DNA from: a virus
Lineage: Duplodnaviria > Caudoviricetes
Strand: one strand, 5' to 3'
DNA: 64,000 nt
Virus record (IMG/VR): IMGVR_UViG_3300047157_000186
The notes under the pieces were generated by a model, which did no database searches, was not told the origin of the DNA, and saw nothing but the letters and a program-made list of their open reading frames with translations. The position numbers and the translations under genes were made by a program. Shown here piece by piece: positions 22,538-41,563 of the stretch. How positions within the stretch are numbered: position 1 is the first letter of the stretch; every line of letters begins with the position of its first letter.

Positions 22538-23470
22538 ATGAGAAGCATATACACATTTGAAGATTTTCTTTTAGAAGCTGATGAAACTGATCAGCTTAAA
22601 AAAATCTGTATCGCAGTTTCTGTAGAAATGCCAGATAATAAGTATGTATATGATTCTAAATATAACGTCTCTAAGGTATTTGAATTATTAGATAAAAATA
22701 AAAAAGCAGAACCTTCTGAAACACCAGTTCTTAATTATGCCAATTGGAAAATTGAGAAAATGATAAAAGACGGATGGGATTCTAAATTTATTTATAATTC
22801 AATTGAAGCTAAACAAAGAGTTTCTTCCAAAGTAAAATGGTGCAAAACTCATGAAGAATCTGAGCATACACCTAAAGTAGTTTTTGATAAATCAAATTTA
22901 AAAGAACTTAAATATCCTATCATAGCTAAACCAGATAATAGATATAGTGGACAGGGTATTATGGTTTTTAAAGAAGAAAAGGATTTAGAAGGTGTTGATT
23001 TAGATCAGTTTTCAGTTTTCTCAGAAAAGATAAATATCGTAGATGAACTTAGAATTTATTGTTGGAAAGGAAAACCTTTGATGCTAGTACATAGAGTGCC
23101 TGCAAATGAAGAAACAAAAAATCTATCTAAAAAAGCAGATGATAAACTGGTATTTAATTACGAATTATCAAAGTCACCTATAACAGAAAATTTAGTTAGT
23201 GTTGTTGAAGAATTTTCAAAAGAACATAATGATTTAGATTTTTATTCGGTAGATATTGTTATAGATGATAAAGATCATCCTTATGTTATTGAAATGTCAT
23301 CAGAACCTGGACCAGTTTTCGGTGTTATGGGACATGTATATAAAGAAATGTATAAGGACTATTATGGAGAAGATGTTTCGGATAAAACTAATAAAATAAT
23401 TGACGCTTATATAGAAGAGGACATTAATACAACGATTGCTTCAGATGAATCTAGATTCAAAAGAAGATAA
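22538..23470 (+). CDS. ATP-grasp (RimK-like) ligase with N-terminal leader motif
   Basis: YPIIAKPDNRYSGQGIMV, ELRIY, FYSVDIV...PYVIEMSSEPG; N-terminus MRSIYTFEDFLLE. Confidence 0.75.
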   Translation: MRSIYTFEDFLLEADETDQLKKICIAVSVEMPDNKYVYDSKYNVSKVFELLDKNKKAEPSETPVLNYANWKIEKMIKDGWDSKFIYNSIEAKQRVSSKVKWCKTHEESEHTPKVVFDKSNLKELKYPIIAKPDNRYSGQGIMVFKEEKDLEGVDLDQFSVFSEKINIVDELRIYCWKGKPLMLVHRVPANEETKNLSKKADDKLVFNYELSKSPITENLVSVVEEFSKEHNDLDFYSVDIVIDDKDHPYVIEMSSEPGPVFGVMGHVYKEMYKDYYGEDVSDKTNKIIDAYIEEDINTTIASDESRFKRR

Positions 23471-23515
23471 ATCGAATAAATAAAAAGATAAATAGAAAGA
23501 ATTAAAAATAGAATT

Positions 23516-23758
23516 ATGGCAGAACCTAATATGAACTGTATGATTATTAATGTGTGGATACATCACATGCAAATAGATGAACTATTCGATTTCTTGAATA
23601 TGAGAATAGATCGTGCACCATTTTATTGGTTAAATGAAGCATCAGTGCCTACATCAATCACGGGTGGTTATGTTATGATTTCGTTAACTTATGATTCTTA
23701 TTCTCATTTATCTTCTAACAGAAACTGGGACGAAGCTCCTGGTTGGATAAAACAATAA
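23516..23758 (+). CDS. hypothetical protein
   Basis: Open ORF with GATAAATA at 23487-23494 upstream. Confidence 0.65.
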   Translation: MAEPNMNCMIINVWIHHMQIDELFDFLNMRIDRAPFYWLNEASVPTSITGGYVMISLTYDSYSHLSSNRNWDEAPGWIKQ

Positions 23759-23759
23759 T

Positions 23760-23870
23760 ATGAAAAAACAAACAAACATGAAAGCGTTTCTTTTAAATTA
23801 TAAAGGAACGAAGTACAAAGCGAACACCCTTATTGGTGTTATTTGGAAGTTTATTACTAAGAAGAAATAA
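23760..23870 (+). CDS. small basic hypothetical protein (36 aa; not in the ORF track)
   Basis: ATG 1 nt after the previous stop; MKKQTNMKAFLLNYKGTKYKANTLIGVIWKFITKKK; ends just before a terminator. Confidence 0.4.
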   Translation: MKKQTNMKAFLLNYKGTKYKANTLIGVIWKFITKKK

Positions 23871-23896
23871 ACAAATCCTAAAAAGAGAGTATAAAG

Positions 23897-23924
23897 AACG
23901 TCTAGATTAATCTAGGCGTTTTTT
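23897..23924 (+). terminator. Rho-independent terminator
   Basis: AACGTCTAGAT-TA-ATCTAGGCGTT plus a T-tract. Confidence 0.7.
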
Positions 23925-23941
23925 AGGATTAAAACAAATAT

Positions 23942-24685
23942 ATGTATACACTAAGCGAACTTCAACAGATGATCTTCATTGACATCGAAACTAGTACACA
24001 AAAAGAAACATTCCAGGAGATCATAGATGATAACCCTGCTCTTGAAGAGTATTGGAATATAAAATCTACGCAACTTATTGAAAGTCAGCCAGAAACTCTT
24101 AAAGACTTTACTGATCCACATAAAATGTGGTCTCGTATGGCAGGACTTTATCCAGAATGGGGTAAAATAGTTTGTATTTCTGTAGGTCAATTAAAGTTTG
24201 ATGAGACTGGATTTCCTAATGACTTTAAAGCAATGTCATTTAGTGGAACAGATGAGGCTCAGGTTCTTAAAGACTTTTCACAAACTGCTGCCAAGATTAT
24301 GCAGAAATATCCTAAAATGAAATGGGTCGGCCATAATATTAAAGGATTTGATTTACCTTATATTATTAAGAGATCATTAATCAATGAGATACAGGTTCCT
24401 TCTGCATTTCATTTACACAAACAAAAACCATGGGAAAACTGTTTACTAGACACACAAGATGTTTGGAAATTTGGCGGATGGAACTCTGCTAAATTAGGTT
24501 TAATTTCAGAACTCTTAGGTATTCCATCTCCTAAAGATGCAATGTCAGGTCCAGAAGTAAATGAATATTATTGGAACGATAGGTTAGAAGAAATAAAAAC
24601 ATATTGTGAAAAAGATATTCAAGCGACCGCTAACATTATGTTAAAAATGAGTGGTATGCCAATTATAGAAGCTCTTCCATTTTAA
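23942..24685 (+). CDS. PolB-type 3'-5' exonuclease (DEDD), standalone
   Basis: IFIDIET (ExoI), VGHNIKGFDLPYI (ExoII), YCEKDI (ExoIII). Confidence 0.85.
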   Translation: MYTLSELQQMIFIDIETSTQKETFQEIIDDNPALEEYWNIKSTQLIESQPETLKDFTDPHKMWSRMAGLYPEWGKIVCISVGQLKFDETGFPNDFKAMSFSGTDEAQVLKDFSQTAAKIMQKYPKMKWVGHNIKGFDLPYIIKRSLINEIQVPSAFHLHKQKPWENCLLDTQDVWKFGGWNSAKLGLISELLGIPSPKDAMSGPEVNEYYWNDRLEEIKTYCEKDIQATANIMLKMSGMPIIEALPF

Positions 24686-24808
24686 AATGACAACATGTCA
24701 TTTAATTTGTAAAATATATGACACTAAGTCTTAATGCTTAGTTTGGTATAATATTTTCAGTATACTATACGAGCACGTTGCTCAAATAATTATAAAAAAA
24801 ATTAAACT

Positions 24809-25168
24809 ATGTTTTACACAACAAACGACCACATTGACAACATTTTCAGGGGAATACAAGAACCTCTATGGAAAACTGGAAAATTAATAAGCGATCATCT
24901 TACTGATTTTCATTACGAAGACGGAGTATTTACTATGGCACTTCCTGGATTTTCTAAAAAAGATTTAGACATTGAAATGGAAGGATCTACATTAAAGATC
25001 TCTGCAGACATTAAAGAAAAAGATGAAACGCTATATAAGAAATCATTTGAAAAGAAATTTAGAGCATCTAATATTGATGTTGAAAGTGTTACAGCAAACA
25101 TGTCAGACGGTATCCTAACTATTATGTTAGATAAGAAAGTTAATCCAAAGAAGATTAAAGTAATATAA
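24809..25168 (+). CDS. small heat shock protein (Hsp20 / alpha-crystallin domain)
   Basis: MALPGFSKKDLDIE...SFEKKF...VTANMSDGILTI. Confidence 0.9.
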   Translation: MFYTTNDHIDNIFRGIQEPLWKTGKLISDHLTDFHYEDGVFTMALPGFSKKDLDIEMEGSTLKISADIKEKDETLYKKSFEKKFRASNIDVESVTANMSDGILTIMLDKKVNPKKIKVI

Positions 25169-25170
25169 TT

Positions 25171-25195
25171 AAAGCGGCTTATGCCGCTTTTTTTT
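25171..25195 (+). terminator. Rho-independent terminator
   Basis: AAAGCGGC-TTAT-GCCGCTTT-TTTTT. Confidence 0.9.
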
Positions 25196-25210
25196 GAAAA
25201 TAAATCACCC

Positions 25211-25258
25211 AGATTTTTTTATGTCATTTATTTGTGGTATATTAGCAGTATAATTAAA
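25211..25258 (+). promoter_or_regulatory. 48-bp conserved early-promoter-like element, copy 1
   Basis: AGATTTTTTTATGTCATTTATTTGTGGTATATTAGCAGTATAATTAAA, 10 nt before an ATG; near-identical copies at 30116, 31151 and 31830. Confidence 0.8.
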
Positions 25259-25268
25259 CACATAAGAT

Positions 25269-25463
25269 ATGATAAATTTAGATTACGCTAAGATTAGCGA
25301 CGTAGAAGTAGACGGAATAGACACCGCAGATTATCCAGATTTTTGTGATGCATTTATTGCATACGCAGAATATGATGGTAAAGAAATGACAGATGAACAA
25401 TTAGATGCGTTAAACGAAGACGGCGATTTTGTTTATGAAGCTGTACAAAATTATTTATTTTAA
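25269..25463 (+). CDS. acidic hypothetical phage protein
   Basis: Open ORF directly behind promoter copy 1; DGIDTADYPDFCDAFI. Confidence 0.75.
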   Translation: MINLDYAKISDVEVDGIDTADYPDFCDAFIAYAEYDGKEMTDEQLDALNEDGDFVYEAVQNYLF

Positions 25464-25473
25464 TATATAATAC

Positions 25474-25785
25474 ATGAAAGAAGACGATTTCAATTTTGAT
25501 GAATTTATGGAAAATAGCAATAGTGATTTCGAAATGAAACTTGAAGAATACAAGGATCGTATGATTCGATTAGCTATTGAAACTAATTATGCACAAATAG
25601 AAAAGAACGGTATTAATGATTGGCATCTTAGGCATATGGATCCTGCAGAATTAATTTCATTAAACGGAACTTTTAAAATGATGCTTGATTATTTTGAAGA
25701 AAATGAAGAGTACGAGAAGTGTGCTAATATCATGAAACAATTAAATACTATAGATTCTATTATGTCTCCAAAGCGAGATATATAA
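25474..25785 (+). CDS. hypothetical protein with C-terminal UVR-like helical motif
   Basis: MLDYFEENEEYEKCANIMK; paralogous motif in 27049 and 27605. Confidence 0.7.
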   Translation: MKEDDFNFDEFMENSNSDFEMKLEEYKDRMIRLAIETNYAQIEKNGINDWHLRHMDPAELISLNGTFKMMLDYFEENEEYEKCANIMKQLNTIDSIMSPKRDI

Positions 25786-25788
25786 AGT

Positions 25789-26046
25789 ATGAAGTATATA
25801 AAATTATTTGAAGAGGATAGGGTAGATCTTAAAAACGAAAATCCTCTTTTAATTAAAATAAGGCATTTTGGTGGAAGTGTTAAAAGCCTAGATGATTGGT
25901 TACGATCAAAGATAGGTGAAACAAATCCGTACAAAGACACTATAATGGTAAACGGTCCACATATGGGAAAGAAAGATAAATCTTTGCCATATCAAGATTT
26001 CCAAAATGGAGAATCGGATTTAGTAAAGAATAATCATGGAAGATAA
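25789..26046 (+). CDS. hypothetical protein with MKYIKLFEE leader
   Basis: Shared N-terminal motif; GATATATA at 25777-25784 upstream. Confidence 0.7.
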   Translation: MKYIKLFEEDRVDLKNENPLLIKIRHFGGSVKSLDDWLRSKIGETNPYKDTIMVNGPHMGKKDKSLPYQDFQNGESDLVKNNHGR

Positions 26047-26266
26047 AATAGCAAAAGAAATAGCGGTTCAATTAAAAAGAATAGCAGACGCATTAGAAAA
26101 ATCTAATAAAAATTCAGAAACATCTGAAAAAAGAAATGCTGTTATTGGTAAACTTCAAGAAAAAAATCTAAAAGCAGATCTAAGAGAAAAACTTAATTTA
26201 GATCAAGCAGATTACACGCCACATCCTAATTCTCCTAGATTTAAAACAGATGATGGATCCTTATAG
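26036..26266 (+). CDS. hypothetical protein
   Basis: Open ORF overlapping both neighbours in operon fashion. Confidence 0.65.
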   Translation: MEDKIAKEIAVQLKRIADALEKSNKNSETSEKRNAVIGKLQEKNLKADLREKLNLDQADYTPHPNSPRFKTDDGSL

Positions 26267-27056
26267 TGTATTAGGTGTCGATAAAACATCTTCACAAGAT
26301 GACATTAAAAAAGCATATAGGAAACTAGCCAAAGAATATCATCCTGATAAAAACGATGGCAATGACGAAAGATTTAAAGAGATTGCTGACGCTTATGAAA
26401 AAATAGGCGATGATTCTTCGAGGCAAAAATATGACTCAGCTTCTAACTTTCAAAATTTTAACGGATTTGGTGATGGAAATATTAACATGTCAGATCTTTT
26501 TGATCAAGTATTTGGTAATGCATTTGGATCCAGACAATCATCTAAGGGCCAAGATTTAAGATTAGATTTACATTTAAGTTTTGATGAAGCTTACGCTGGA
26601 ACTTCTAAAAAGTTTGCAGTTAATGGTCAAGATATTAAAGTTGATTTTAAAGCTGGACTTAAAACAGGAATGAAACTAAGAGTCGCAGGAAAGGGACAAC
26701 CTCATCAATATAATTCTACACTACCAAACGGCGATCTAATTATTCACATACATGTGATGCATAATAGTAATTGGATTTTACAAGACAATGATATTTGGTT
26801 AGATTTAAATTTATCATGGGAAGATATATTTTTAGGAACTAAAATAAATGTAAATACACCTGAAGGTCCACTTTATATTAATGTACCTAAGAATAGTTAT
26901 CCTGGAAAAGTTCTTAGAATCAGAGATCGAGGATATCCAATATATGGCACCGAAAAAAAAGGTGCACTTTTATGTAAATTAAATGCTTCTTATTTTGAAC
27001 TTAATTCCGAACAACTGGAATATATAAAGAAAGTAAAGAGCATAAAAGATGAATGA
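26250..27056 (+). CDS. dnaJ: DnaJ-class chaperone lacking the zinc finger (CbpA-like)
   Basis: DPYSVLGV...IKKAYRKLAKEYHPDKN J-domain, G/F-rich linker and C-terminal substrate-binding domain (GDLIIHI, LRIRDRGYP). Confidence 0.9.
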   Translation: MMDPYSVLGVDKTSSQDDIKKAYRKLAKEYHPDKNDGNDERFKEIADAYEKIGDDSSRQKYDSASNFQNFNGFGDGNINMSDLFDQVFGNAFGSRQSSKGQDLRLDLHLSFDEAYAGTSKKFAVNGQDIKVDFKAGLKTGMKLRVAGKGQPHQYNSTLPNGDLIIHIHVMHNSNWILQDNDIWLDLNLSWEDIFLGTKINVNTPEGPLYINVPKNSYPGKVLRIRDRGYPIYGTEKKGALLCKLNASYFELNSEQLEYIKKVKSIKDE

Positions 27057-27312
27057 TTACACATTTAGCGACGATAGTAAAAAATGGTTTAGAATATTCG
27101 ATGGACTCATAGTTAATAATGAGGACATGTTTTTCAATGCATTGTATATGGCCATCACACATCATCCAACTTATGTAATTGCTTCAGATTTAGAAGACGA
27201 GCGCAAGATCACTATTTTAGGTGCAATGTTAAAGCACTTTGAAGAAAAAGAAGAATTCGAAAAATGCGCCAGTATTTATAACATTAAAAAACAGATTAAA
27301 ACAATATGCTAA
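27049..27312 (+). CDS. hypothetical protein with C-terminal UVR-like motif
   Basis: MLKHFEEKEEFEKCASIYNIK. Confidence 0.7.
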   Translation: MNDYTFSDDSKKWFRIFDGLIVNNEDMFFNALYMAITHHPTYVIASDLEDERKITILGAMLKHFEEKEEFEKCASIYNIKKQIKTIC

Positions 27313-27491
27313 TAATAGAAGTAGATAAGGGAAATATAGAGAAGGCACTGAAACAATATAAAAGAAAGGTTAGAAATACTAAACAAATAAATCACTTAAG
27401 AGATCAACAAGATTTCACCAAGCCATCAGCAAAGAAACGTCTTAAGATGCAAAAAGCCAAGTACTTACAATCTAAAAATCAACCGGAATGA
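27306..27491 (+). CDS. rpsU: ribosomal protein bS21 (phage-encoded)
   Basis: MLII.V..GNIEKALKQYKRK...LR....FTKPSAKKR...QKAKYLQ matches the Bacteroidia-type bS21 pattern. Confidence 0.9.
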   Translation: MLIIEVDKGNIEKALKQYKRKVRNTKQINHLRDQQDFTKPSAKKRLKMQKAKYLQSKNQPE

Positions 27492-27604
27492 TATATTAAT
27501 AAATTATCCTAATATATTGATTCAATTTCTATATTAGGTAAATCGTATATTAATATATACAAAGGAGCAACTAAGTTGCAACTAAAAACAAAAGGTAATT
27601 TAAG

Positions 27605-27865
27605 ATGGCAGGCTTTATTTCAAGTTCAGATAAAGATAGTTTGATGAGAGCTAGTTATTACCAGATAACTAGAAATTTTACTAAGACAGTAAATAGATTC
27701 ATCGCATTCAAGGATACAGATCGTATCGTTGAAATTCCTCATGGAATAAAACAGCGTTCTAAATTTATTGACCTAATGATCAAATACTTCGAATCATTAG
27801 AAGAGTACGAAAAATGTACTAAGCTGGTAAAACTAAAAGAACTTGTCATAATGGCAGGGGATTAA
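27605..27865 (+). CDS. hypothetical protein with C-terminal UVR-like motif
   Basis: MIKYFESLEEYEKCTKLVKLK. Confidence 0.7.
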   Translation: MAGFISSSDKDSLMRASYYQITRNFTKTVNRFIAFKDTDRIVEIPHGIKQRSKFIDLMIKYFESLEEYEKCTKLVKLKELVIMAGD

Positions 27866-27884
27866 TTATAAAAACAATTATTAA

Positions 27885-28592
27885 ATGAGTAGAGGAACAG
27901 AAAAGCAAACAAGACAATCTAAAAACGGAACAATAGATTCCGGATTAAAACGAGTTACACTTAGACAATCCCAACATAAATACGTAAAACAAATAGAAGA
28001 AAACGAAATAACATTTTGCTACGGTCCAGCAGGAACATCAAAAACATTTACGGCATGTTTCGTAGCACTTAAATTACTACAAGAAAAGAAAATAAAAGAA
28101 ATTATCCTTTGTAAACCAATACAAGAAGCAGGTGAAAAGTTAGGATTTTTACCAGGAACAAAAGAAGAAAAGATCGACCCTTATATGAATTCGTATATTT
28201 CGAATATCACTAAAATAGTAGGAGGTCAACAAGCAAAATATTTATTTGATAGCAAAACAATTAGATTTGAGCCACTTGCATACATGAGAGGTGATACGTT
28301 TGATGATGCTCTTATGGTTTTAGATGAAGCACAAAATGCAACATTTAAACAATTAATGTTATTTGTAACTAGAATGGGTAAATCAAGTAAAGTTGTAGTT
28401 ACAGGTGATGTCAGCCAACATGATATTGCTAAACAACATGTAGGTTTACCAGGATTCATAGAGATTATGCAGGGTGTAAAAGGAATTGGTGTACATATAT
28501 TTAGTAATAAAGATATTGTAAGAGCTAAGATCTTACAGGAAGTTGTACAGAGATACGATGAATGGAAATCAAAAAACGAAAACAAATTTTAG
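27885..28592 (+). CDS. phoH: PhoH-family ATPase
   Basis: GPAGTSKT Walker A, GEKLGFLPG, PLAYMRG, LDEAQN, GDVSQHD. Confidence 0.95.
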   Translation: MSRGTEKQTRQSKNGTIDSGLKRVTLRQSQHKYVKQIEENEITFCYGPAGTSKTFTACFVALKLLQEKKIKEIILCKPIQEAGEKLGFLPGTKEEKIDPYMNSYISNITKIVGGQQAKYLFDSKTIRFEPLAYMRGDTFDDALMVLDEAQNATFKQLMLFVTRMGKSSKVVVTGDVSQHDIAKQHVGLPGFIEIMQGVKGIGVHIFSNKDIVRAKILQEVVQRYDEWKSKNENKF

Positions 28593-28636
28593 AAACATTT
28601 TAATGATTCCGTATATAAGTACTAAACATACTATAT

Positions 28637-29272
28637 ATGGAATCATATCAAATCTTATTAAAGCACAGCCACTCAGGAAATCCAGACATAACTGAAATCG
28701 GATTAGACGAAGCTGGAAGAGGTGCTTTATCAGGGCCAGTAACCGTAGCAGCATGTATCATGCCATATGGATTTCAACACGAACTTGTTAAAGACTCAAA
28801 ATTATTAAGTGAGCCCCAAAGAGTAGCTGCAAGACAATTGGTTTTAGATAACTGTATTGCATACTCTATTAAACACGTCAGTGTTGAAGACATTGAAAAT
28901 ACTAATATTTTAAAAGCAACATTAGAAGGTATGCGCAGGTGCCTAGAAGATGTAAAGGATAATTTAATTGATTTTGATTTTATTCTTGTAGACGGAGATC
29001 AATTCCATGGATTTGATGGAATTCCATTTGAAACAGTAGTAGGTGGAGATAATACATATGTATCAATTGCTGCGGCTTCTATTCTGGCCAAAACAGAAAG
29101 AGACTTGCTTATGAAAGAATTAAGCACTGATTTTCCAGCATATGGTTGGGGGTCAAACAAAGGATATGGTACTAAACAACATAGAGATGCTATATTAAGT
29201 GAAGGTGCTACACCTCATCATAGAAATTCCTTTATAAGCCATATGTTAACTAAAACCAACACATTATTTTGA
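28637..29272 (+). CDS. rnhB: ribonuclease HII
   Basis: GLDEAGRGALSGPV, VKDSKLL, LVDG, SIAAASILAK, NKGYGT..H. Confidence 0.95.
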   Translation: MESYQILLKHSHSGNPDITEIGLDEAGRGALSGPVTVAACIMPYGFQHELVKDSKLLSEPQRVAARQLVLDNCIAYSIKHVSVEDIENTNILKATLEGMRRCLEDVKDNLIDFDFILVDGDQFHGFDGIPFETVVGGDNTYVSIAAASILAKTERDLLMKELSTDFPAYGWGSNKGYGTKQHRDAILSEGATPHHRNSFISHMLTKTNTLF

Positions 29273-29613
29273 GAGGATTATTAATAGGAATGTTATTGTT
29301 CCTTGGTGGACAAACATTAATTTGGTTTCAAACAAACGGTCAATTTATAAATCCTTGGATGAAGAAAAATCCACTAGCGATCAGTATCTTGGGAGGTACA
29401 ATTATTAGTTATATGTTTATTAAAGCAACTGCACTAATTGCGGGTTATTATGACGGAGCGTTATGGCCAGGAAGATTTATAGGATTTTCAATGGGCATAA
29501 CATCATTTGCGTTTTTAACATGGTACTTTTTAAATGAAGGTATTAATATTAAAACTGCAGTTTCTTTGTGTTTAGCATTCGCACTTATTTCAGTACAATT
29601 ATTCTGGAAATGA
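29269..29613 (+). CDS. small multi-pass membrane protein
   Basis: About four hydrophobic segments in 114 aa. Confidence 0.7.
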   Translation: MRGLLIGMLLFLGGQTLIWFQTNGQFINPWMKKNPLAISILGGTIISYMFIKATALIAGYYDGALWPGRFIGFSMGITSFAFLTWYFLNEGINIKTAVSLCLAFALISVQLFWK

Positions 29614-29864
29614 AGAAATTAAAATTACCTTGGTTAGAAAATGATAAACCTACAAATGTAGTAGTTTATAGAAAACAAAAGAATAGTAGCACATACTATA
29701 TGATTGTCACCAATATTCACGTTGACGTTATTAATAACGGAAGAGCAACGAAACCAATCGTAGATCATAAATATGAAATTGTAGAATTAGGAATAGGTTT
29801 TAATTTCATAGAGGAATGGGCTAGAAAATATAATATAAAAACCCCAAAGGTTTTAGTTAAATAA
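29610..29864 (+). CDS. hypothetical protein
   Basis: ATG 29610 overlapping the upstream TGA (ATGA) is preferred over the track start at 29568. Confidence 0.65.
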   Translation: MKKLKLPWLENDKPTNVVVYRKQKNSSTYYMIVTNIHVDVINNGRATKPIVDHKYEIVELGIGFNFIEEWARKYNIKTPKVLVK

Positions 29865-29869
29865 ATTTT

Positions 29870-30097
29870 ATGAAAAGATCAATTAATATTATTAGCACTT
29901 GGATAGGTGTATTGTTAGGATTAGTTATAATAGCAACTGTATTAACAATACCAACACAATATTTATGGAACACGTGTTTAGTTCCAGCAATAGATGGCAT
30001 AAATGCTATAGGATTTTGGCAGGCATTAGGACTTAATGTGTTATCTACTATCTTATTTAAGGGTTCGGGTACTCCTAAAACTAATCCTGAAAAATAA
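29870..30097 (+). CDS. small membrane protein
   Basis: Two hydrophobic segments; IGFWQALGL motif. Confidence 0.65.
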   Translation: MKRSINIISTWIGVLLGLVIIATVLTIPTQYLWNTCLVPAIDGINAIGFWQALGLNVLSTILFKGSGTPKTNPEK

Positions 30098-30115
30098 ATT
30101 AAAAAAAGTGCTCTC

Positions 30116-30163
30116 AGATTTTTTTATGTCATTTATTTGTGGTATATTAGTACTATAATTAAA
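30116..30163 (+). promoter_or_regulatory. 48-bp conserved early-promoter-like element, copy 2
   Basis: AGATTTTTTTATGTCATTTATTTGTGGTATATTAGTACTATAATTAAA. Confidence 0.8.
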
Positions 30164-30174
30164 AAGCGAAAGAT

Positions 30175-30435
30175 ATGAGTTACACAAGATTTGACAGACA
30201 TAGCTGTTTTACTTCAGAAATGAGAACTATGACAATGGACATTATCAATGCCACTGAAAACGACGAGTTTACAAACATGGCCTATGGGCTTTTTGATGGA
30301 TATTTATATGATGCTCTTTTACCTAAAGCTATAAAATTAGGTGTGAGTAAAGATATAGAAAACAAAATCAAAGGCTTGATCAAAGCCATTGAGATGTATT
30401 TACTTTTAACAAAACCAACAATAAAAACCACATAA
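30175..30435 (+). CDS. hypothetical protein
   Basis: Open ORF directly behind promoter copy 2. Confidence 0.7.
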   Translation: MSYTRFDRHSCFTSEMRTMTMDIINATENDEFTNMAYGLFDGYLYDALLPKAIKLGVSKDIENKIKGLIKAIEMYLLLTKPTIKTT

Positions 30436-30436
30436 T

Positions 30437-30892: not shown

Positions 30893-30893
30893 A

Positions 30894-31136: not shown

Positions 31137-31150
31137 AAATAAATCACACC

Positions 31151-31198
31151 AGATTTTTTTATGTCAAATATTTGTGGTATATTAGTAGTATAATTAAA
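31151..31198 (+). promoter_or_regulatory. 48-bp conserved early-promoter-like element, copy 3
   Basis: AGATTTTTTTATGTCAAATATTTGTGGTATATTAGTAGTATAATTAAA. Confidence 0.8.
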
Positions 31199-31208
31199 AG
31201 TTAAAAAT

Positions 31209-31607: not shown

Positions 31608-31608
31608 G

Positions 31609-31821: not shown

Positions 31822-31829
31822 ACGCACAA

Positions 31830-31877
31830 ATACTTTTTTATGTCAAATATTTGTGGTATATTAGTAGTATAATTAAA
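31830..31877 (+). promoter_or_regulatory. 48-bp conserved early-promoter-like element, copy 4 (5' end diverged)
   Basis: TTTTTTATGTCAAATATTTGTGGTATATTAGTAGTATAATTAAA. Confidence 0.8.
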
Positions 31878-31887
31878 AGCAAAAGAA

Positions 31888-32355: not shown

Positions 32356-32366
32356 AATAAAACAAT

Positions 32367-32881: not shown

Positions 32882-32882
32882 T

Positions 32883-33831: not shown

Positions 33832-33849
33832 AAACCACATATAACTTAA

Positions 33850-34053
33850 GTGACTATTAACACACTTTCATATTATCTTTTATTTGGTGTCATTGTAAAT
33901 GCACTATATGATTTCTTAATTTCTACAATAGACAGAGAGGATTTAAGATTTAATATGCTAGAAAGAATTTTAGTGGGTCTCTTTTGGCCAGCATATTTGG
34001 TACTACTTACTATTAACTTTATAATAAACTATATAAATGGAAAAAACAAATAA
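33850..34053 (+). CDS. small membrane protein
   Basis: GTG start; two hydrophobic segments. Confidence 0.6.
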   Translation: MTINTLSYYLLFGVIVNALYDFLISTIDREDLRFNMLERILVGLFWPAYLVLLTINFIINYINGKNK

Positions 34054-34969
34054 TTACGGATATTGTTGTATCAATACTACTTTACAGAAATCTGAAAAAG
34101 TTACTACTAATCGTAGCATGATTAAACGTACGTTTGCAGCTAAAGGTATTGAGTATGCATCAGAGCTTGCATTATTAAATGTAAAAGATTTAGTTAAAGT
34201 AATTAATTGGAATAATCGTAATGGCATCAAACTCTTTCGTATTAGTTCTGACATGTTTCCATGGATGAGCGAGTATGAATTGTCTGATTTACCAGATTAC
34301 AATAAAATTGTGAATGTTCTTAAAGGTGCTGGTAAAATTGCAATGGATAATGGCCAACGTTTGACATTCCACCCTGGCCCATTCGATGTATTGGCATCGC
34401 TTACACAACGAGTAGTTGACAAATGTATTATTGATCTCAACAAACATGGTGAAATTATGGATTTACTTGGTTTACCAAGAGATCACTCTGCACCAATCAA
34501 TATACATGTCAATACCACACAAGGTGGTAAAGAAGAAGCAATGCAAAGATTTGTGGATAATTTCAAATTACTTGACGATTCTGTACGTACTCGATTAGTT
34601 GTAGAAAACGATGACAAAGAAAGTCAGTACACGACTGAAGATCTATACGAAGGCGTATTCAGTAAAGTTGGTGTTCCTATCACATTTGATTATCATCACC
34701 ATTGGTGCCATCCAGGTGTATTATCGCAAGAAGAAGCACTTAAACTTGCAGCTAAATCATGGCCAAAAGGTATCAAACAATTAGTACATTATTCTTCATG
34801 TCAACAATTACATGAAGACGAGACTCAAACGAATAAGCGTGCGCATGCAGATTATATTTATGAGTATATAGAAACATATGGCCTGTATCTGGATATTGAG
34901 TTAGAAGTAAAAGCAAAAGAATTGGCTCTACAAAAATATTTGAAACAATATCAATTAGAGTTAGTATAA
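34037..34969 (+). CDS. uvsE: UV damage endonuclease UvsE/UVDE
   Basis: GYCCIN, LFRISSD.FPW, RLTFHPGPFDVLAS, INIH, RLVVENDD, FDYHHH, HYS, HAD, ELEVKAKE. Confidence 0.95.
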   Translation: MEKTNNYGYCCINTTLQKSEKVTTNRSMIKRTFAAKGIEYASELALLNVKDLVKVINWNNRNGIKLFRISSDMFPWMSEYELSDLPDYNKIVNVLKGAGKIAMDNGQRLTFHPGPFDVLASLTQRVVDKCIIDLNKHGEIMDLLGLPRDHSAPINIHVNTTQGGKEEAMQRFVDNFKLLDDSVRTRLVVENDDKESQYTTEDLYEGVFSKVGVPITFDYHHHWCHPGVLSQEEALKLAAKSWPKGIKQLVHYSSCQQLHEDETQTNKRAHADYIYEYIETYGLYLDIELEVKAKELALQKYLKQYQLELV

Positions 34970-34988
34970 CCATTATAAAAATTAGTAT

Positions 34989-35195
34989 ATGAAAAAAATT
35001 AAAAATGTATTGAGAAAATTGTCTAACAGAGCAGTTGGTGTACAAGGAACATTATTCTTGGTATTTGCCATTGTATCATTAATTGCGGGCCAAGAATCTA
35101 CTAGATTTTGGATGTTTATGATAGCATCAATCGTATTTAGTGCATTACAGACAATCATTGATCAATTAAAAGAATTAAATAACAACAAATTATGA
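34989..35195 (+). CDS. small membrane protein
   Basis: Two hydrophobic segments. Confidence 0.6.
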   Translation: MKKIKNVLRKLSNRAVGVQGTLFLVFAIVSLIAGQESTRFWMFMIASIVFSALQTIIDQLKELNNNKL

Positions 35196-35437
35196 GTTTA
35201 AAAGTAGACGCTCTTAGAGCTAAGTATGTCGCTATGAGATTAGAGGCAATTGCAACATTAGAAGTGTATTCTAAAAATGCAGTGGGAATTGGTGAACACC
35301 CACAAGTCATTGAAGAAATGGATAAATTAGTAAGAACAGTAGCCGATGCAAATGGGTATATAGAAGTTCTAGATCAAATTTTCGTTGATAGCGATGAAGG
35401 TACACAAGTAGGCAAAACCGGTCAAGTAAACGGTTAA
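35192..35437 (+). CDS. hypothetical protein
   Basis: Helical protein with VGIGEHPQVIEEMDK. Confidence 0.7.
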   Translation: MSLKVDALRAKYVAMRLEAIATLEVYSKNAVGIGEHPQVIEEMDKLVRTVADANGYIEVLDQIFVDSDEGTQVGKTGQVNG

Positions 35438-35456
35438 CAAAGTCTCAACTAACCAT

Positions 35457-35489
35457 GAAAATGAGGTTCTAACGAACCTCATTTTTTTT
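35457..35489 (+). terminator. Rho-independent terminator
   Basis: AAAATGAGGTTC-TAAC-GAACCTCATTTT-TTTT. Confidence 0.9.
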
Positions 35490-35527
35490 GCTTTAAAGTG
35501 CAGTTAAATTTAAATGATATATAATAC

Positions 35528-36226
35528 ATGAAACATATTAGAACATATGAAAGTTTTATTGGTGAAGGAAGATCTGCATATGACGGATTAGCTTCTAAAT
35601 TAACTAAAGCTATATTCAATAAATGGGTTAAATCATATAAAGGCGGGAACGCTACAATAAATTATGGAGACCAAATTGAAGAGAGAGGTTTAGAGTTTGA
35701 TATTGAAGCTACTATTGATATTGATAAAAAATATGAAGGATTTCAAGTATTAGATTCAACAGGTGCCGATGGCAGAGACGATGATGATCACGGTGACTTT
35801 CAAACACCTTATATTATTATAGACTTTGCTTTAAATCCTGAGTGGATTCCAGGAGAATGGTCAACAGTATATTTTCATTTAGCGGATGTTGTTCGCCATG
35901 AAATGGAACATATTACACAAGATGGGATTGACACTGGAAATTACAGAAACGGCAAACCTAATGAAGACGATAGTGAACTAAGAGCCTATATAAAAATGGG
36001 ACTTTTACCAAAATCTCAATATCTAATGTTACCTAAAGAGGTAGATGCTAATTTACAAGGATTAAGATATGAGGCTAAGAAGAGAAAAGAAAACATGAGT
36101 GATACTGTTCGTAGATATTTAGATACGCAACAGGAACAGGGTGTTATTAACGACGAAGAAAGAGAACAAGTATTAGATCTTTGGAGACGAAGAGCAGCAA
36201 AAATAGGAGGTATACCTAAATTTTAA
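35528..36226 (+). CDS. zincin-like (HExxH) protein with N-terminal leader
   Basis: VVRHEMEHITQ and a downstream E (PKEVDA); N-terminus MKHIRTYESFIGE; GATATATA at 35516-35523. Confidence 0.65.
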   Translation: MKHIRTYESFIGEGRSAYDGLASKLTKAIFNKWVKSYKGGNATINYGDQIEERGLEFDIEATIDIDKKYEGFQVLDSTGADGRDDDDHGDFQTPYIIIDFALNPEWIPGEWSTVYFHLADVVRHEMEHITQDGIDTGNYRNGKPNEDDSELRAYIKMGLLPKSQYLMLPKEVDANLQGLRYEAKKRKENMSDTVRRYLDTQQEQGVINDEEREQVLDLWRRRAAKIGGIPKF

Positions 36227-36227
36227 T

Positions 36228-36683
36228 ATGAAATACATAAAACTATTCGAAGAGTTTACAGCAAACAAGGTATCTTGTGATAACTGTGGTTGGTCTTGGG
36301 AAATAGAAGACGGTGGACACGATGTGTTTATTTGTCATAAATGTAATCATGATAATACACCTATTTTAGGAGAACAATTTATCTTACAGGAATTAGAAGA
36401 TCAATTCAATATAGAATTAGATTTATATGATAACGGTAAATACTTACAACTTAGTAAAATAAAAATACAAAAAGAGGACCGAAATAAAGGAATCGGTTCT
36501 AAGGTTATGTCAAGAATTACTGACTATGCCGACACACAAAATTTAAAAATATATCTAACACCTTCTAAAGATTTTGGAGCAACTTCTATTTCTAGATTAA
36601 ATAAGTTTTATAAAAACTTTGATTTTGTCAAGAATACAGATAAAAGCCAAACTAAAGATACTATGGTTAGATTACCAAAATAA
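36228..36683 (+). CDS. Zn-ribbon plus GNAT acetyltransferase with N-terminal leader
   Basis: MKYIKLFEEF; CDNC...CHKC; IKIQKEDRNKGIGSKVM (acetyl-CoA motif A) and LNKFYKNFDF. Confidence 0.75.
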   Translation: MKYIKLFEEFTANKVSCDNCGWSWEIEDGGHDVFICHKCNHDNTPILGEQFILQELEDQFNIELDLYDNGKYLQLSKIKIQKEDRNKGIGSKVMSRITDYADTQNLKIYLTPSKDFGATSISRLNKFYKNFDFVKNTDKSQTKDTMVRLPK

Positions 36684-36693
36684 TAAAAACAAC

Positions 36694-39654
36694 ATGAGCA
36701 ATTTTAACGATTTCCTAGGAATGCAAGCCGCAAAACTAAACATGACAAGAGAAGAGTATACTGCATACTATTTGTCAGAAGCAAAACCTGGTCCAAAACC
36801 ATATCACAGAGGATTAGATGACGATGAGATTGAAGATAAAAAAGATCAGATAAAAAAACAATCAGACATGGATGACGATGATTCTAGTGCATATAAAGAA
36901 ATGCCAGGTGATAAAGAAGCTAGAGAAAAAGGTGAAGTTAAAACATCTAAGCATGTAAAGAAATATCATGAATTATATGGTGATAAAAAAGATGAGTCAG
37001 TGGATGAAGCAACATTCAGACCAAACTCAGGTACTATGAGTGGAGGTACATATACTTTAGATAATAGAAAATATAAATTAAAAAAAGATATTGAAGGTGT
37101 TCAAATTGGTAATTATACAAATATAGTGTTACCAAAGGGAACTATTATATACAACATTCCGGGCGGTGTGTTTGCAGATCACCCTTCATTAAAAAGATAC
37201 GAGAACGGAAACAACAAATATTTTAACAAACCAACATTTAAGGGAATTTCTATTATAAGAAAAGAGGAAACTATCTTTTCAATAGATAAAAATTCAAAGA
37301 TATTAGAATCAGTAGTTACTGAAGCTAAAGCATATAAGTTAAAAGCTTCTGAATTCGGTGGAGATACACACTCAGCACCGTACAACGTAAAGGGCGAACC
37401 TACATGGAGAGTTCATAGTACTTATGCTATTGATCAAGTATCTGGAGAAAATGATGCAAGTGAAAGAGACGTAGTTTTCTTTGAAGCAATGCCTATTAAT
37501 AATGACATATACATTAAGATTGGTGGAATCAATAACCTTAAAAGAACTAATGGTTCTACATACGGTAATAACTTTGGCACTACTATTGAAGAATGGAAAA
37601 AGGATCCAAAGAGAATTGCAAAAGAAGCTTCCGAGTTTCTTACTGATGCAACGCATCTTAAATGGATAAACAAAAAAGCAAGAAGTCAGGGTCAAACAAT
37701 TAAATGGGCTTTGAAGGACGATTACTCTAGTGTGATTGTAGATCTAGTTAATAAATCATTAGGTCTTACTGAATCTCAAGTTAATGAGTTTTATTTTGAG
37801 AAAGATGAAGAAGAAAGATTACAAAAATTTGTAGATCAACTTTCTTTTGGAGATGAACTAGAATACAGAGATGGTTTTTCTACAGGTCGTGGAAGCTTTC
37901 CAAATACAAGACAACTTAAAAATGAATTAGATTCTAATTTTCAATTATTACTAACTCAAAAATCAGGTAGAAATTGGGATCTTTATGTTGGTAGTGATGA
38001 TTTAGTTTTTCTTATACAGCCAGATTTAGGTGCAAAGAATTATATGCAAGTTTCAATAAGTAGTACTAAAGAACAATGGAACGATGAGTCTAGTGTTTTT
38101 GCTAGATCCAATGGATATTCAGTATATGAATCAGTAGTTAACGAAAGAGCTAAACACACATCAACTGATTTTTCTAAACCAGGTAATGATGGTGATATTT
38201 ACTTTTCAAAAAGAGAAGGTGATGCCGTCGGCGTTAGATTAGGAGATAAATTACAAATGATTTATGTTTTTCAAGAAGAACCTAAATTAGGAAGAATTCA
38301 AAAAACTGATAAACGTTGGGAAAACATGGGTCCAGCTTCTGAAGAACTTTTAATTGATTTAAGAGGTAGAGAAGAAGGTAAAATATTATTTGACTTTGTT
38401 TCAACTCTTGAAGAATCAGTAGTTAATGAAGAAAAGATTAAATATGCTAAAGGAAAAACATATCAATCTTCTGGTCATTGGACTGTACAAGTTGATAGTA
38501 ATTCAAGTATGTGTGATATTAGAGTAAATCATTCAGCTGGTTGGAGATTAGATCCACATGATGATAGAGAAGAAACTTGGGAATTATTAGATAATGGAAG
38601 ACAAAGAGCTACAATATATTTTAAATCTGGTAATATTGATAAGTTTGCTAAACAGATGTTTGATCTTAATGATAGAACAACTTGGGGTAATAAAACAAAA
38701 TTAACTGCTAAAGATTATGCAGATATTATTAGAGTTTGGATCGATATGAAAATGGCTAATGAAGGTAATTATAACTTAGAAGATATTTATGATTTAATAG
38801 CACATCACAGATTTGATAAAGATTATAAAAAACTTTCTTCTAAAGACAGAGAGTGGATAGAGAATGATGCTGAAGAAAGAGGATTCGTAGAATCTTTATC
38901 ACCCAGATTTTTTAATTCTTTATTAGTAAAGTTAAACGAAGATTTAATTACAGAAAGTAAAGTGCCTAATTTTAAATTCGGTATGAAAAAACAATATGAC
39001 GCTGATGATATTAATCAAATGTATGGTTTTTGGGGAACTCTAGATGTTCATATGGACACTTATGAAATTGAAGAAATATGGAACGATGTATGGGGAATAT
39101 TGACAAGGGGTTGGAAGTTCTCAGATGCTGGAGCGCTATATTATCTAAACGCAAAAGCTGGTAGATGGTTAGCAGATAAAGTATGGAACGATATTAATTC
39201 TCAGATTTCTCAACCAGATGCCATTGATATGATTTTATCTGATTATGCTAGACCATCTAAATGGAAGGCATGGTCAAAAGAATATAATACATTTGCTCAG
39301 GAAGAATTGGCAGAATGTGTTATTCTAGAAAAGGCTGAAGGCGATAGAGGTCCAATCAGTGATCCTAAAATTGAAAAAGCACTTAAGACAAAATCAGAAG
39401 AAACTGGTGTGCCAATTGGTATCATTAGAATTATTATGAGAAGAGGAATGGCAGCATGGAAAACTGGTCATAGACCTGGTGCAACTGAACAACAATGGGG
39501 ATATGCTCGAGTAAATGCATTTTTAACAAAAGGTAAAGGAACTTGGGGAGATGCTGATAAAGATGTCGCTAAAGAAGTTAGAGATGAAGGTCATGATGAC
39601 GGGTTAAAGGAACAGAATTACTTTGATCAATCACACAGAAAACAAAATATATAA
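36694..39654 (+). CDS. modular ~990-aa putative head-cargo polyprotein
   Basis: Unrelated-looking modules joined by ESVDEA/ESVVTEA/ESQVNE/ESVVNE/LNE-type linkers; ATG 36694 preferred over 36619. Confidence 0.7.
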   Translation: MSNFNDFLGMQAAKLNMTREEYTAYYLSEAKPGPKPYHRGLDDDEIEDKKDQIKKQSDMDDDDSSAYKEMPGDKEAREKGEVKTSKHVKKYHELYGDKKDESVDEATFRPNSGTMSGGTYTLDNRKYKLKKDIEGVQIGNYTNIVLPKGTIIYNIPGGVFADHPSLKRYENGNNKYFNKPTFKGISIIRKEETIFSIDKNSKILESVVTEAKAYKLKASEFGGDTHSAPYNVKGEPTWRVHSTYAIDQVSGENDASERDVVFFEAMPINNDIYIKIGGINNLKRTNGSTYGNNFGTTIEEWKKDPKRIAKEASEFLTDATHLKWINKKARSQGQTIKWALKDDYSSVIVDLVNKSLGLTESQVNEFYFEKDEEERLQKFVDQLSFGDELEYRDGFSTGRGSFPNTRQLKNELDSNFQLLLTQKSGRNWDLYVGSDDLVFLIQPDLGAKNYMQVSISSTKEQWNDESSVFARSNGYSVYESVVNERAKHTSTDFSKPGNDGDIYFSKREGDAVGVRLGDKLQMIYVFQEEPKLGRIQKTDKRWENMGPASEELLIDLRGREEGKILFDFVSTLEESVVNEEKIKYAKGKTYQSSGHWTVQVDSNSSMCDIRVNHSAGWRLDPHDDREETWELLDNGRQRATIYFKSGNIDKFAKQMFDLNDRTTWGNKTKLTAKDYADIIRVWIDMKMANEGNYNLEDIYDLIAHHRFDKDYKKLSSKDREWIENDAEERGFVESLSPRFFNSLLVKLNEDLITESKVPNFKFGMKKQYDADDINQMYGFWGTLDVHMDTYEIEEIWNDVWGILTRGWKFSDAGALYYLNAKAGRWLADKVWNDINSQISQPDAIDMILSDYARPSKWKAWSKEYNTFAQEELAECVILEKAEGDRGPISDPKIEKALKTKSEETGVPIGIIRIIMRRGMAAWKTGHRPGATEQQWGYARVNAFLTKGKGTWGDADKDVAKEVRDEGHDDGLKEQNYFDQSHRKQNI

Positions 39655-39657
39655 TAC

Positions 39658-40344
39658 ATGAAGTATATTAAATTGTTTTTAGAATCTGAAGTCAGAGATG
39701 ACGATACTTACAGCGATTATCCAGAAGCGGCAAAGAAAAATGCTCAAATGGCAATCGATTGGAAAGAAAAGTATGGTCGCGAAGAAGTGGACGCTGGAAC
39801 TGCAGTTGGTTGGGCAAGAGCACATCAATTAGCTAAAGGTGAAAACATATCTGGAGATACAGTAAAACGTATGGCTTCATTTAATAGACATAGAAAAAAT
39901 TCATCTATTAAACCTGAATTAAAAGAAACTCCATGGAAAGATAAAGGTTATGTTTCTTGGTTAATATGGGGTGGAGATGAAGGAGTTGATTGGGCAATGG
40001 AACTATCTAAAAAGATGAGTAAAGTTGAAGAAATGGTTAGTGTTTTATCTTTAGATCAATTTATTCTAGAGAAAAAGAAAAGTAAACCAAAAACAGATAA
40101 AGAAAAAATAAAAGATCTTTCTAAAAAACAAAAGAGTTTATCTAAGAAAAACAAAGATTTTATTGAGAAAATAAATAAGATGTCTAAAGATAAATCAAAA
40201 GAACCAGCTGATAAAATAGAAACGGCATTGTTAAAATCACAAATGCAACAAACTTCTGTTGATGGCATGAAAATAGCTGTTCAAAAAAACCAATTAGCTT
40301 TGAAAGCAAAGCTAAAGACGATTAAAAAAAGATCAAAGGCATAA
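39658..40344 (+). CDS. putative virion head-associated protein, two modules
   Basis: MKYIKLFLESE leader; YSDYPEAAKKNA...GWARAHQLA...WLIWGG domain; internal SLDQFILEK before a Lys-rich helical part. Confidence 0.6.
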   Translation: MKYIKLFLESEVRDDDTYSDYPEAAKKNAQMAIDWKEKYGREEVDAGTAVGWARAHQLAKGENISGDTVKRMASFNRHRKNSSIKPELKETPWKDKGYVSWLIWGGDEGVDWAMELSKKMSKVEEMVSVLSLDQFILEKKKSKPKTDKEKIKDLSKKQKSLSKKNKDFIEKINKMSKDKSKEPADKIETALLKSQMQQTSVDGMKIAVQKNQLALKAKLKTIKKRSKA

Positions 40345-40348
40345 TAAT

Positions 40349-40831
40349 ATGAAATATATTAAATTATTTGAATCATTTGTAAATGATAAAGAGATCAAGG
40401 ACTGGGAAAAAGATAACGGTAAACTACCGATTCCCAAGAAGATCATAGAGATATCTAAGGATATGGCAAAGGAAGGTTTTATTAGAAAAGATACTAAGGC
40501 GGTTCAAGCTAAATTATGGATTGGATTAGAAGGAATTTCATGGATAGAAATGAAGCAAAAGTTTGGAGATATAGTAGGTAAATTTTATGGTGGAGAATTC
40601 TATAATGCTATGACAAACCCTATGGCAGAAAAATCAGCCTATTATGCATATGAAGTTTCGAAGCATGTTAGTGATATGGTTGCTAATGAAGAATCAGTAG
40701 AACCTGCTTACTATCTAATGAAAAATTATTTTAATTCATTTGGATTAAATATTAACAGAAATAAACTTTTCGACAGAGCAGAAAGAGAACTAGATGCATG
40801 GATGAAAAACAACAAAATAGAAACGTTATAA
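40349..40831 (+). CDS. hypothetical protein with MKYIKLFESF leader
   Basis: Shared N-terminal motif. Confidence 0.7.
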   Translation: MKYIKLFESFVNDKEIKDWEKDNGKLPIPKKIIEISKDMAKEGFIRKDTKAVQAKLWIGLEGISWIEMKQKFGDIVGKFYGGEFYNAMTNPMAEKSAYYAYEVSKHVSDMVANEESVEPAYYLMKNYFNSFGLNINRNKLFDRAERELDAWMKNNKIETL

Positions 40832-40867
40832 TATATTAAGATATATAATAAAAATCAACAACACAAC

Positions 40868-41563
40868 ATGGACAAAAAAATATTATCATTCGAAGAGTAT
40901 GCTGCTAATAAAAATCTAGCAAATACTGACAAATTGGCTGAAGACGAAATCGAAATCAAAGTAGACGGAGAGTATGAAATCGAAGTAGAAAAAGAAGACG
41001 AAGACGAAAAAGAAGCGGAAACTGAAGAAACTGAAGAAAAAGTTGAAGAGGCTGAAGAGGTTGATGAAGATTTTGAAAAAAAATTCAATTCGGCAATGGA
41101 TTCTGTGGATGATGTTCGTACAGAAATTGAAATGACATTAGAAGACACACCTCAGTTAAAATCATTCTATACAGTAGATGCCCAATTAGATAAAGCACTA
41201 GGAAGTTATAGAAAAAAAATTAAGCGTATATTAAGTGCAGTTTCGGAATCAACTAATGAAGCAGAAGAAACTGAAGAGGTTGCAAAAGCGGTTTCAGAAA
41301 TGATGACAGAGGCATATGAATCTGCCGTCAAAGAAGCATGTGAATATGACAAAGATGACTATCCTGACCACACTGTAGAATCATACCTTAAAGAAAACGC
41401 AACATTAGCTGCAACATTAGTTGCTCAATCAGCAGAAGATGCGAACGCTGAGATACATGGAGAAGGACTTACTAAAGAAATGTACGAAGCATGTCTAAAC
41501 GGTATTAAAGAAGCTTATAATAAAAAGATTGATGAGCTTAAAGAAATGTACGAAGCAAAATAA
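40868..41563 (+). CDS. very acidic helical protein, possible scaffold/core component
   Basis: Glu/Asp-rich; MDKKILSFEEY leader; internal ESTNEA; GATATATA at 40840-40847. Confidence 0.55.
   Translation: MDKKILSFEEYAANKNLANTDKLAEDEIEIKVDGEYEIEVEKEDEDEKEAETEETEEKVEEAEEVDEDFEKKFNSAMDSVDDVRTEIEMTLEDTPQLKSFYTVDAQLDKALGSYRKKIKRILSAVSESTNEAEETEEVAKAVSEMMTEAYESAVKEACEYDKDDYPDHTVESYLKENATLAATLVAQSAEDANAEIHGEGLTKEMYEACLNGIKEAYNKKIDELKEMYEAK

Follow-up and report, generated by a model that had tools for sequence, protein, structure and literature searches.

The 64,000-nt stretch of phage DNA considered here, referred to below as the window, comes from the IMG/VR virus record IMGVR_UViG_3300047157_000186 (Duplodnaviria; Caudoviricetes). 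The phage genome it represents is large and AT-rich (~31-33% GC), with genes exclusively on the + strand, and eight of the genes between positions 22538 and 41563 encode proteins that open with variants of one short N-terminal peptide, here called the leader or tag. A preliminary description had assigned an MKYIKLFE(E/S)F-type start to these eight N-termini, and all eight are found where it placed them. The shared start is real, but the true unit is longer, extending over 13 residues and ending [ILVM]-x-E. It has the form M-x-x-Φ4-x-x-[F/Y]7-x-x-F10-[I/L/V]11-x-E13, with the consensus MKHIKLFEQFINE, and comparison of orthologues indicates that all eight copies descend from it. On the + strand of the window, a loose form of the pattern is matched at the starts of four open reading frames (ORFs) and at one internal site that resembles a linker; the other strand has no match.

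Only the leaders at 22538 (FLLE/A, with the slash here and below following the last residue of a leader or linker) and 35528 (FIGE/G) are complete in the window. The other six are eroded, and canonical leaders are present in orthologues of all six; erosion is either tolerated or has left some copies no longer functional. The first gene (22538-23470) encodes an R2K-type ATP-grasp protein of 310 amino acids (aa) that begins MRSIYTFEDFLLE/A, with the sequence GATATATA at 22526-22533, 12 nt before the ATG. Its orthologue in the closest large relative (G008), which has a baseplate wedge protein 83% identical in aa sequence to that of the window, begins MKRIKFFEDFLNE/A. An 85-aa protein (25789-26046; GATATATA at 25777) has the eroded leader MKYIKLFEE..., and its G008 orthologue begins MKYIKLYEDFASE/N; in another relative (L060), a leader-tagged protein of 220 aa ends with this module. 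The small acidic protein encoded immediately upstream (25474-25785), which begins MKEDDFNFDEFMEN after a AATATATA-N4-ATG start, may be a further, highly diverged member of the set.

The remaining six leader genes are adjacent. The first (35528-36226; GATATATA at 35516-35523, 12 nt before the ATG) encodes a 232-aa HExxH domain, possibly zincin-like, behind the full leader MKHIRTYESFIGE/G. It is followed by a gene (36228-36683) for a protein that starts MKYIKLFEEF and continues with a Zn-ribbon, a second half-leader, GEQFILQE/L, and a GNAT module; in G008 and L168, a leader immediately precedes this GNAT module, and the Zn-ribbon of L035 leads into GESVNE/A. A 986-aa polyprotein with a C-terminal DUF5824 domain (36694-39654) has the degenerate leader MSNFNDF...YYLSE/A, the origin of which is apparent from L108, which reads MKHVKLFETFITE/KKPGPDPY where the window reads …YYLSE/AKPGPKPY. 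The leader of the phrog_2859-type protein (39658-40344; AATATATA at 39646) has an internal deletion, so that the window reads MKYIKLFLESE/VRDDDTYSDYP where L036 reads MKYIKLFEEFVSE/AEDTYTDYP. Within this protein there is also a leader-like SLDQFILE/K (encoded at 40033-40071), followed by a Lys-rich tail of 90 residues (to 40344) that could be a separate basic DNA-binding product, nearer in character to the T4 internal proteins. A homologue of its domain in the cultured 440-kb Salicola phage SCTP-2 (gp459; L130:2877-3266) begins MKINDFTSTKLFEDEG, which contains KLFEDE and is possibly a remote version of the tag. A 160-aa protein without known family (40349-40831; orthologues in L025, L039, L042 and L101) begins MKYIKLFESFVND, ending VND with E13 replaced by D, and the last gene (40868-41563; GATATATA at 40840) encodes a very acidic protein (231 aa; pI 4.2) with the diverged leader MDKKILSFEEY, more distant orthologues of which begin MAKLKSFEQFLSE/M or MAKLKSFEQYVAE/K.

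A degenerate DNA pattern for leader residues 1-10 (M-K-[H/Y]-I-K-L-F-E-x-F) has matches at 120 or more loci in IMG/VR. Nearly all of the 148 matches listed are at ORF starts, a few codons past the upstream stop, and the reversed pattern has no match in IMG/VR. Across 596 Gb of cellular genomes, the pattern occurs in 11 stretches, every one in a metagenome bin. Most of the contigs concerned have a low GC content (0.20-0.38), one is filed under Pseudomonas, and one match is on a 4.3-Mb chromosome with 44% GC; most of these matches look like mis-binned phage. Between 13 and 19 tagged genes are present in each relative genome examined.

The search pattern left positions 11-13 unconstrained, and these positions conform to [ILVM]-x-E in 76 of the 131 non-redundant leader ORFs among the matches listed (58%), as compared with 1.7% elsewhere in the same proteins. 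Conservation drops sharply after E13 in these ORFs, and the third residue before the presumptive cut (P3) is I, L or V in 86 of them; among orthologues of the 35528 protein, the proportion is 108 of 109. The latter set was gathered without reference to the tag and therefore provides an unbiased view of the leader. Among its 109 full-length members, E13 and [ILVM]11 are each present in 108, F10 and [F/Y]7 in 107, and I, L or V at position 4 in 105, with positions 2, 3, 5, 6, 8, 9 and 12 variable, a pattern that defines the leader unit as M-x-x-Φ-x-x-Ar-x-x-F-Φ-x-E.

Identical leader residues are specified by the same codon in 0.687 of pairs, where codon usage predicts 0.619, which indicates selection on the peptide and not on a DNA cassette. 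The leader codons are AT-rich, and a RATATATA motif is positioned exactly 4 nt before the ATG of five window genes (motifs at 22526, 25462, 25777, 35516 and 39646), four of them leader genes, and of 11 of 134 IMG/VR leader genes among the matches listed, as might be expected of a nucleic-acid-level element such as a duplicated promoter/start cassette or an AT-rich translation enhancer. That explanation is largely refuted by synonymous codons varying about as usage predicts while the residues are fixed. The signal, moreover, runs to residue 13 and recurs within ORFs as linkers, and the upstream motif is missing from most leader genes, making a nucleic-acid-level element highly improbable.

The preliminary description regarded the domains downstream of the leader as unrelated to each other, and this holds well beyond the window. 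The window itself has an R2K ATP-grasp, a Zn-ribbon plus GNAT, DUF5824 and four proteins without a family, and 128 IMG/VR cargos among the matches listed fall into 91 BLAST clusters. Few of these cargos have Pfam families, namely GNAT, 2H/Acb1, LRR, AAA_28, DUF5661, DUF5824 and a few others. Leader-tagged cargos of L050, L085 and L101 match Pfam Acb1 (anti-CBASS) and the 2′-5′ RNA ligase (2H) superfamily and, judged by these matches, are candidate pre-packed nucleases directed against cyclic-nucleotide defence signals. Even among relatives with an 88%-identical 35528 orthologue, gene content varies between the conserved flanks.

The occurrence of ATP-grasp and GNAT genes among the tagged genes, together with the ability of shared leaders to serve one maturase, raises the question of whether the leader could be a recognition element like those of ribosomally synthesized and post-translationally modified peptides (RiPPs), with a co-encoded ATP-grasp, GNAT or other enzyme modifying the tagged proteins. 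The ATP-grasp and GNAT proteins are, however, themselves tagged, belong to the variable cargo and are absent from many islands; of the components identified, only a protease of the S77 family is common to nearly all complete genomes, and modification of this type seems very unlikely.

With 390 homologues, the 35528 domain is very frequent in marine metagenomes. Its H-E-x-x-H motif is invariant and there is no Pfam match. An AlphaFold2 model based on 57 homologues has a mean pLDDT of 89 and a pTM of 0.86, and residues 1-14 are the sole segment with pLDDT below 50, the model being confident from residue 15. The tag is thus located outside the fold. A Foldseek search of the PDB with this model returned no match at E ≤ 0.001, and the widest matches obtained with VIA-align are to the catalytic domains of M1 aminopeptidase and other zinc peptidases (Z 4.8-4.9 over ~130 residues), too weak to name the fold. 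In Flavobacterium phage immuto, the 35528 domain is fused to a nucleotidyltransferase, an NMNAT-like domain and a second HExxH domain.

The tag is amphipathic (positions 4, 7, 10 and 11 being hydrophobic or aromatic) with a helical moment of 1.1-1.6, and residues 7-12 form a short helix in the 35528 model. Such a periodicity would suit a docking helix that is never removed, with the intact N-terminus binding a common partner, such as a component of a phage factory or scaffold or a host protein, and so gathering the tagged proteins; several window copies, moreover, lack the Glu. The absence of a confident contact between the tag and its own cargo in the model is neutral in this respect. What an uncleaved helix does not explain is the near invariance of Glu13 in the 35528 orthologues (108 of 109) and the use of the same position as the [ILVM]-x-E joint of polyproteins, and we therefore consider it improbable.

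These joints are most evident in the 986-aa protein, in which six linkers of the form [LIV]-x-E-x-[FVLQ]-[IV]-x-E are encoded at 37300 (ILESVVTE), 37765 (LTESQVNE), 38122 (VYESVVNE), 38407 (LEESVVNE), 38932 (LNEDLITE) and 39307 (LAECVILE). The same pattern describes LFEQFINE, the C-terminal eight residues (6-13) of the leader. The protein comprises seven or more modules, which occur in other combinations in relatives; a family name is available for DUF5824 only, and modules located internally in the window follow a leader directly elsewhere (L073, L108). Residues 197-356 are encoded as a separate 165-aa protein in L073, with the start MKHIKLYEEFVNE/A; L108 and L062 have residues 15-106 fused directly to residues 861-975, and further pieces are found in L080 and L091 behind ESVNE or FIGE joints. 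The converse is seen in a 1248-aa open frame in L074, in which the 39658 and 40349 modules are internal and C-terminal, respectively, and ESVLNE/ replaces the leader. The 35528 domain, similarly, is the C-terminal module of a 907-aa immuto protein, in which it follows …VMAE/GRYD, aligned with …FIGE/GRSAYD of the window. In every leader/linker case compared, Glu is the point at which homology of the module starts. The tag and the internal linkers are interchangeable at the same module boundaries.

Metatranscriptome contigs from four libraries that cover 37300-38430 include strain variants in which, precisely at the ESVV(N/T)E linkers, the sequence becomes unrelated or an entire module is missing, as exemplified by a joint from 38142 to 38428. 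Three of the linkers have an identical 13-nt stretch, GAATCAGTAGTTA, in common. With strain variants diverging at these positions and this stretch shared, the linkers look like points of in-frame exchange and recombination.

A protease that could recognize such sites is present in the relatives. PF03420 (Peptidase_S77, the family of T4 gp21) is detected in five of the six leader-bearing IMG/VR records with an estimated completeness of ≥90% and in 24 of 47 others, mostly fragments; in 14 control genomes nothing scores above the family cut-off. The S77 ORFs (L121-L126 and, in G008, L148:11307-13364) are 600-750 aa long (686 aa in G008), with the protease domain followed by ~15 tandem 11-residue repeats, YSEYLAENxDK, that are coiled-coil-like and contain many L-A-E sites, and with an acidic tail. 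From this architecture, the product appears to be a fusion of protease and scaffold that is itself degraded, with a cut site in each repeat.

In G008, the gene order is DNA-end protector, portal (phrog_213), a tagged 112-aa protein, protease (phrog_207), major head protein (phrog_138) and a 522-aa protein. The 112-aa protein begins MKIIKTFEDFITE/D and is encoded behind a GATATATA motif, the 522-aa protein begins MKLKSKLKLYEQFVNE/N, and the N-terminus of the major head protein has the sites LLNE/A, IISE/A and GINE/S. The complete 256-kb genome of G027 has the same arrangement, with the tagged protein between portal and protease being 130 aa rather than the 112 aa of G008. The corresponding order in T4 is portal (20), gp67, gp68, gp21, gp22 and gp23, and T4 head proteins too open with short [L/I]-x-E peptides. 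By this order, the leader-tagged protein of G008 and G027 stands at the position of gp67 and gp68, the prohead core proteins of T4.

The equivalence of leader and linker marks a shared boundary signal and not, in itself, a destination, and the tag might be a processing signal only, with leaders and linkers serving to mature polyproteins and pro-proteins in the cytoplasm by the S77 protease or the 35528 HExxH enzyme, the products acting late in the producing cell without being packaged or injected. The conserved HExxH domain heads the island of leader genes and is part of a polyprotein in immuto, and zincin-like peptidases, the commonest peptidases in polyvalent proteins, have been proposed to function there in autoprocessing (PMC5512222). 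The assignment of this domain as a zincin is, however, weak (Z <5), and a standalone protein has no evident need for a removable stub of 13 residues unless the stub acts first. Positions 4 and 7, and the fixed distance from Met1 to Glu13, are conserved at N-termini alone, a tagged protein is located within the head module, and a cut after Glu with I, L or V at P3 is the known rule of T4 gp21. On this evidence, processing without packaging is unlikely.

Upstream of the leader genes, the preliminary description noted five RATATATA motifs, and these are real (22526, 25777, 35516, 39646 and 40840), but the element is a general one. RATATATA occurs 17 times on the + strand of the window and twice on the − strand, 12-36 nt before many gene starts that include those of fibre, tail and baseplate genes, with a similar strand bias in relatives (47/6 and 66/3). 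It is interpreted here as a presumptive late-type promoter element, comparable to the TATAAATA of T4. If RATATATA is a −10-like late promoter, the N4-ATG spacing predicts mRNAs that are leaderless or nearly so. The three leader genes that lack the motif follow in the same units as the five that have it. The stretch 35528-41563 constitutes one unit, opened by the RATATATA at 35516 and located between two strong intrinsic terminators, one with a 13-bp stem and T-run (35457-35486) that closes the upstream unit and one with a 14-bp stem (41591-41621) that closes the island. Contigs from RNA libraries cover the island and, in all four runs, break at the gap between terminator and promoter (35457-35527; breaks at ~35450-35550), which fits the unit boundary, although contigs cannot prove transcription, its timing or 5′-ends.

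A second intergenic element, the conserved 28-nt cassette TTTATGTCAwwTATTTGTGGTATATTAG, is followed by TATAAT and then ATG and has no match when shuffled. Its copies (25218-25245, 30123-30150, 31158-31185 and 31837-31864) precede four small non-leader genes, and in sequence it looks like an early promoter. Strain G001 contains an additional 2.1 kb located precisely at the 25.2-kb copy, and so the cassettes may be points of gene exchange. G001, a 47-kb fragment ~95-97% identical to window positions 1-32867, is the nearest record, and its additional 12 kb upstream of the window contains no further leader gene.

In addition to numerous small genes, the window encodes collagen-like and Thr-rich fibre genes and baseplate genes. 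The baseplate wedge matches proteins of uncultured 460-735-kb phages, Lak phages, the Tenacibaculum phages pT24 and PTm1, Sphingomonas phage PAU and others with 27-40% identity, and the close relatives are contigs of 254-271 kb. Public sequencing runs from 15 studies, on seawater and on marine and viral metagenomes, include DNA nearly identical to the island of leader genes; six of these runs are recorded as RNA. The clade is one of abundant, uncultured marine jumbo phages, with hosts probably in the Bacteroidota.

The best-documented counterpart of the leader is the capsid-targeting sequence (CTS) of T4, MKTYQEFIAE (doi 10.1101/2021.01.19.427310), which carries the internal proteins IPI-III, or any fused protein, into the scaffold core; gp21 then removes the CTS and ~1000 protein molecules stay in the head (PMC3012670; PMC5694885). 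In both systems a short N-terminal peptide is common to otherwise unrelated, polymorphic proteins (IPI, IPII, IPIII and Alt in T4) and ends [L/I]-x-Glu (YQEFIAE in T4, FEQFINE here). Over their last seven residues, the two peptides are of similar character (aromatic, Q/E, E/Q, F, I, small, E), although they are too short for a test of homology. A gp21-type S77 protease and a T4-like order of head genes are present in this phage group, and cargo islands vary between close relatives, as do the polymorphic internal-protein loci of T-even phages. The tag here is, in contrast, 13 residues long with an invariant skeleton (4, 7, 10, 11, 13) rather than ~10, its last eight residues double as polyprotein linkers, the genes that encode it number 13-19 per relative genome examined rather than a handful, and its cargos are often enzymes.

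In phiKZ-like giants (phiKZ, 201phi2-1, SPN3US), a T4-related prohead protease likewise cleaves numerous internal head proteins behind Glu, in many cases more than once, and the propeptides are considered to direct these proteins to the prohead (PMC5694885). Their cleavage motif is, however, S/A/G-x-E and their propeptides are protein-specific and mostly >100 residues long, whereas the leader is one short shared tag with I, L or V at P3. Polyvalent proteins (Iyer et al. 2017, PMC5512222) resemble the tagged cargos in having shuffled effector-type domains (GNAT, 2H, ParB-like, peptidase), solo or fused, that are predicted to enter the host with the DNA. No common N-terminal tag or cleavable linker has been described for them, and their hallmark families were not detected in the window proteins.

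Taken together, the leader is probably a detachable address-and-cleavage tag of the T4 CTS kind. Tagged proteins and polyproteins would be made alongside the virion proteins, and the tag would bring them into the prohead scaffold core, where the head protease would cut after Glu13 and after every internal linker; the freed modules would then be retained by the head and delivered to the host along with the DNA. As the C-terminal half of the tag is also the polyprotein joint, one address could import a chain of modules for the protease to separate. The likeness to T4 capsid targeting that was originally proposed is strengthened by the sharp boundary with its gp21-type cut motif, peptide-level selection, the equivalence of leader and linker, the disorder of the tag and the S77 protease and head module of the relatives; the argument from promoters proved weaker.

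Several observations weigh against this interpretation. No canonical cut site is present in six of the eight leaders of the window, and the window cargos are mostly acidic or near neutral whereas the T4 internal proteins are basic. Per-gene enrichment of RATATATA on leader genes is not significant in three genomes (p = 0.17, 0.06 and 0.73), and the late timing of this presumed promoter is itself an inference. The S77 protease and head module are known from relatives (G008, G027 and tagged records) and not from the window DNA, and one near-complete leader-bearing record has no S77 match. PTm1, pT24, SCTP-2 and immuto, all cultured, have an S77 protease and zero matches to the tag pattern, and no cultured tag-bearing phage was found, so that the tag system, in contrast to that of T4, is known from sequence alone. 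The uncultured LR756500, which also has the protease, has nine matches, of the form MKYIKEYEEF; it is the only one of these five S77 phages to have the pattern, which makes the tag an elaboration in one branch of the phages with T4-type heads.

The principle of a capsid-addressed, cleavable tag has been known since T4. The present case contributes a different sequence for both tag and linker, from marine relatives of PAU, PTm1 and the Lak phages, a direct demonstration of the interchangeability of tag and linker at shared module boundaries, a tagged protein in the gp67/gp68 position and the apparent fusion of protease and scaffold. The leader string was not found in the literature searched, none of the papers listed that use the term 'capsid targeting sequence' concerns marine jumbo phages, and surveys of jumbo phages and of polyvalent proteins make no mention of such a tag.

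It is conceivable, although somewhat short of probable, that the tag and its 8-residue internal form together constitute a readable 'injectome' code, in which dozens of enzyme and inhibitor modules per genome are addressed to the capsid, cut at the linkers by the head protease and exchanged there between phages, with the Acb1-like 2H nucleases, GNAT, ATP-grasp and HExxH domain as candidates. If so, sequence alone would suffice to list the proteins that a phage delivers ahead of its own gene expression. Proteins brought in together with the DNA act before phage genes are expressed and are therefore prime candidates for acting against host defences. In T4, few such proteins are known, and they were found via their shared targeting peptide. 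The equivalence of tag and linker suggests that such arsenals evolve by in-frame exchange of modules, and the tag, linker and protease would form a natural toolkit for loading foreign proteins into large capsids. With a distinct and readily recognized tag, metagenomic data would yield a list of probable pre-packed effectors, the majority without a known function.

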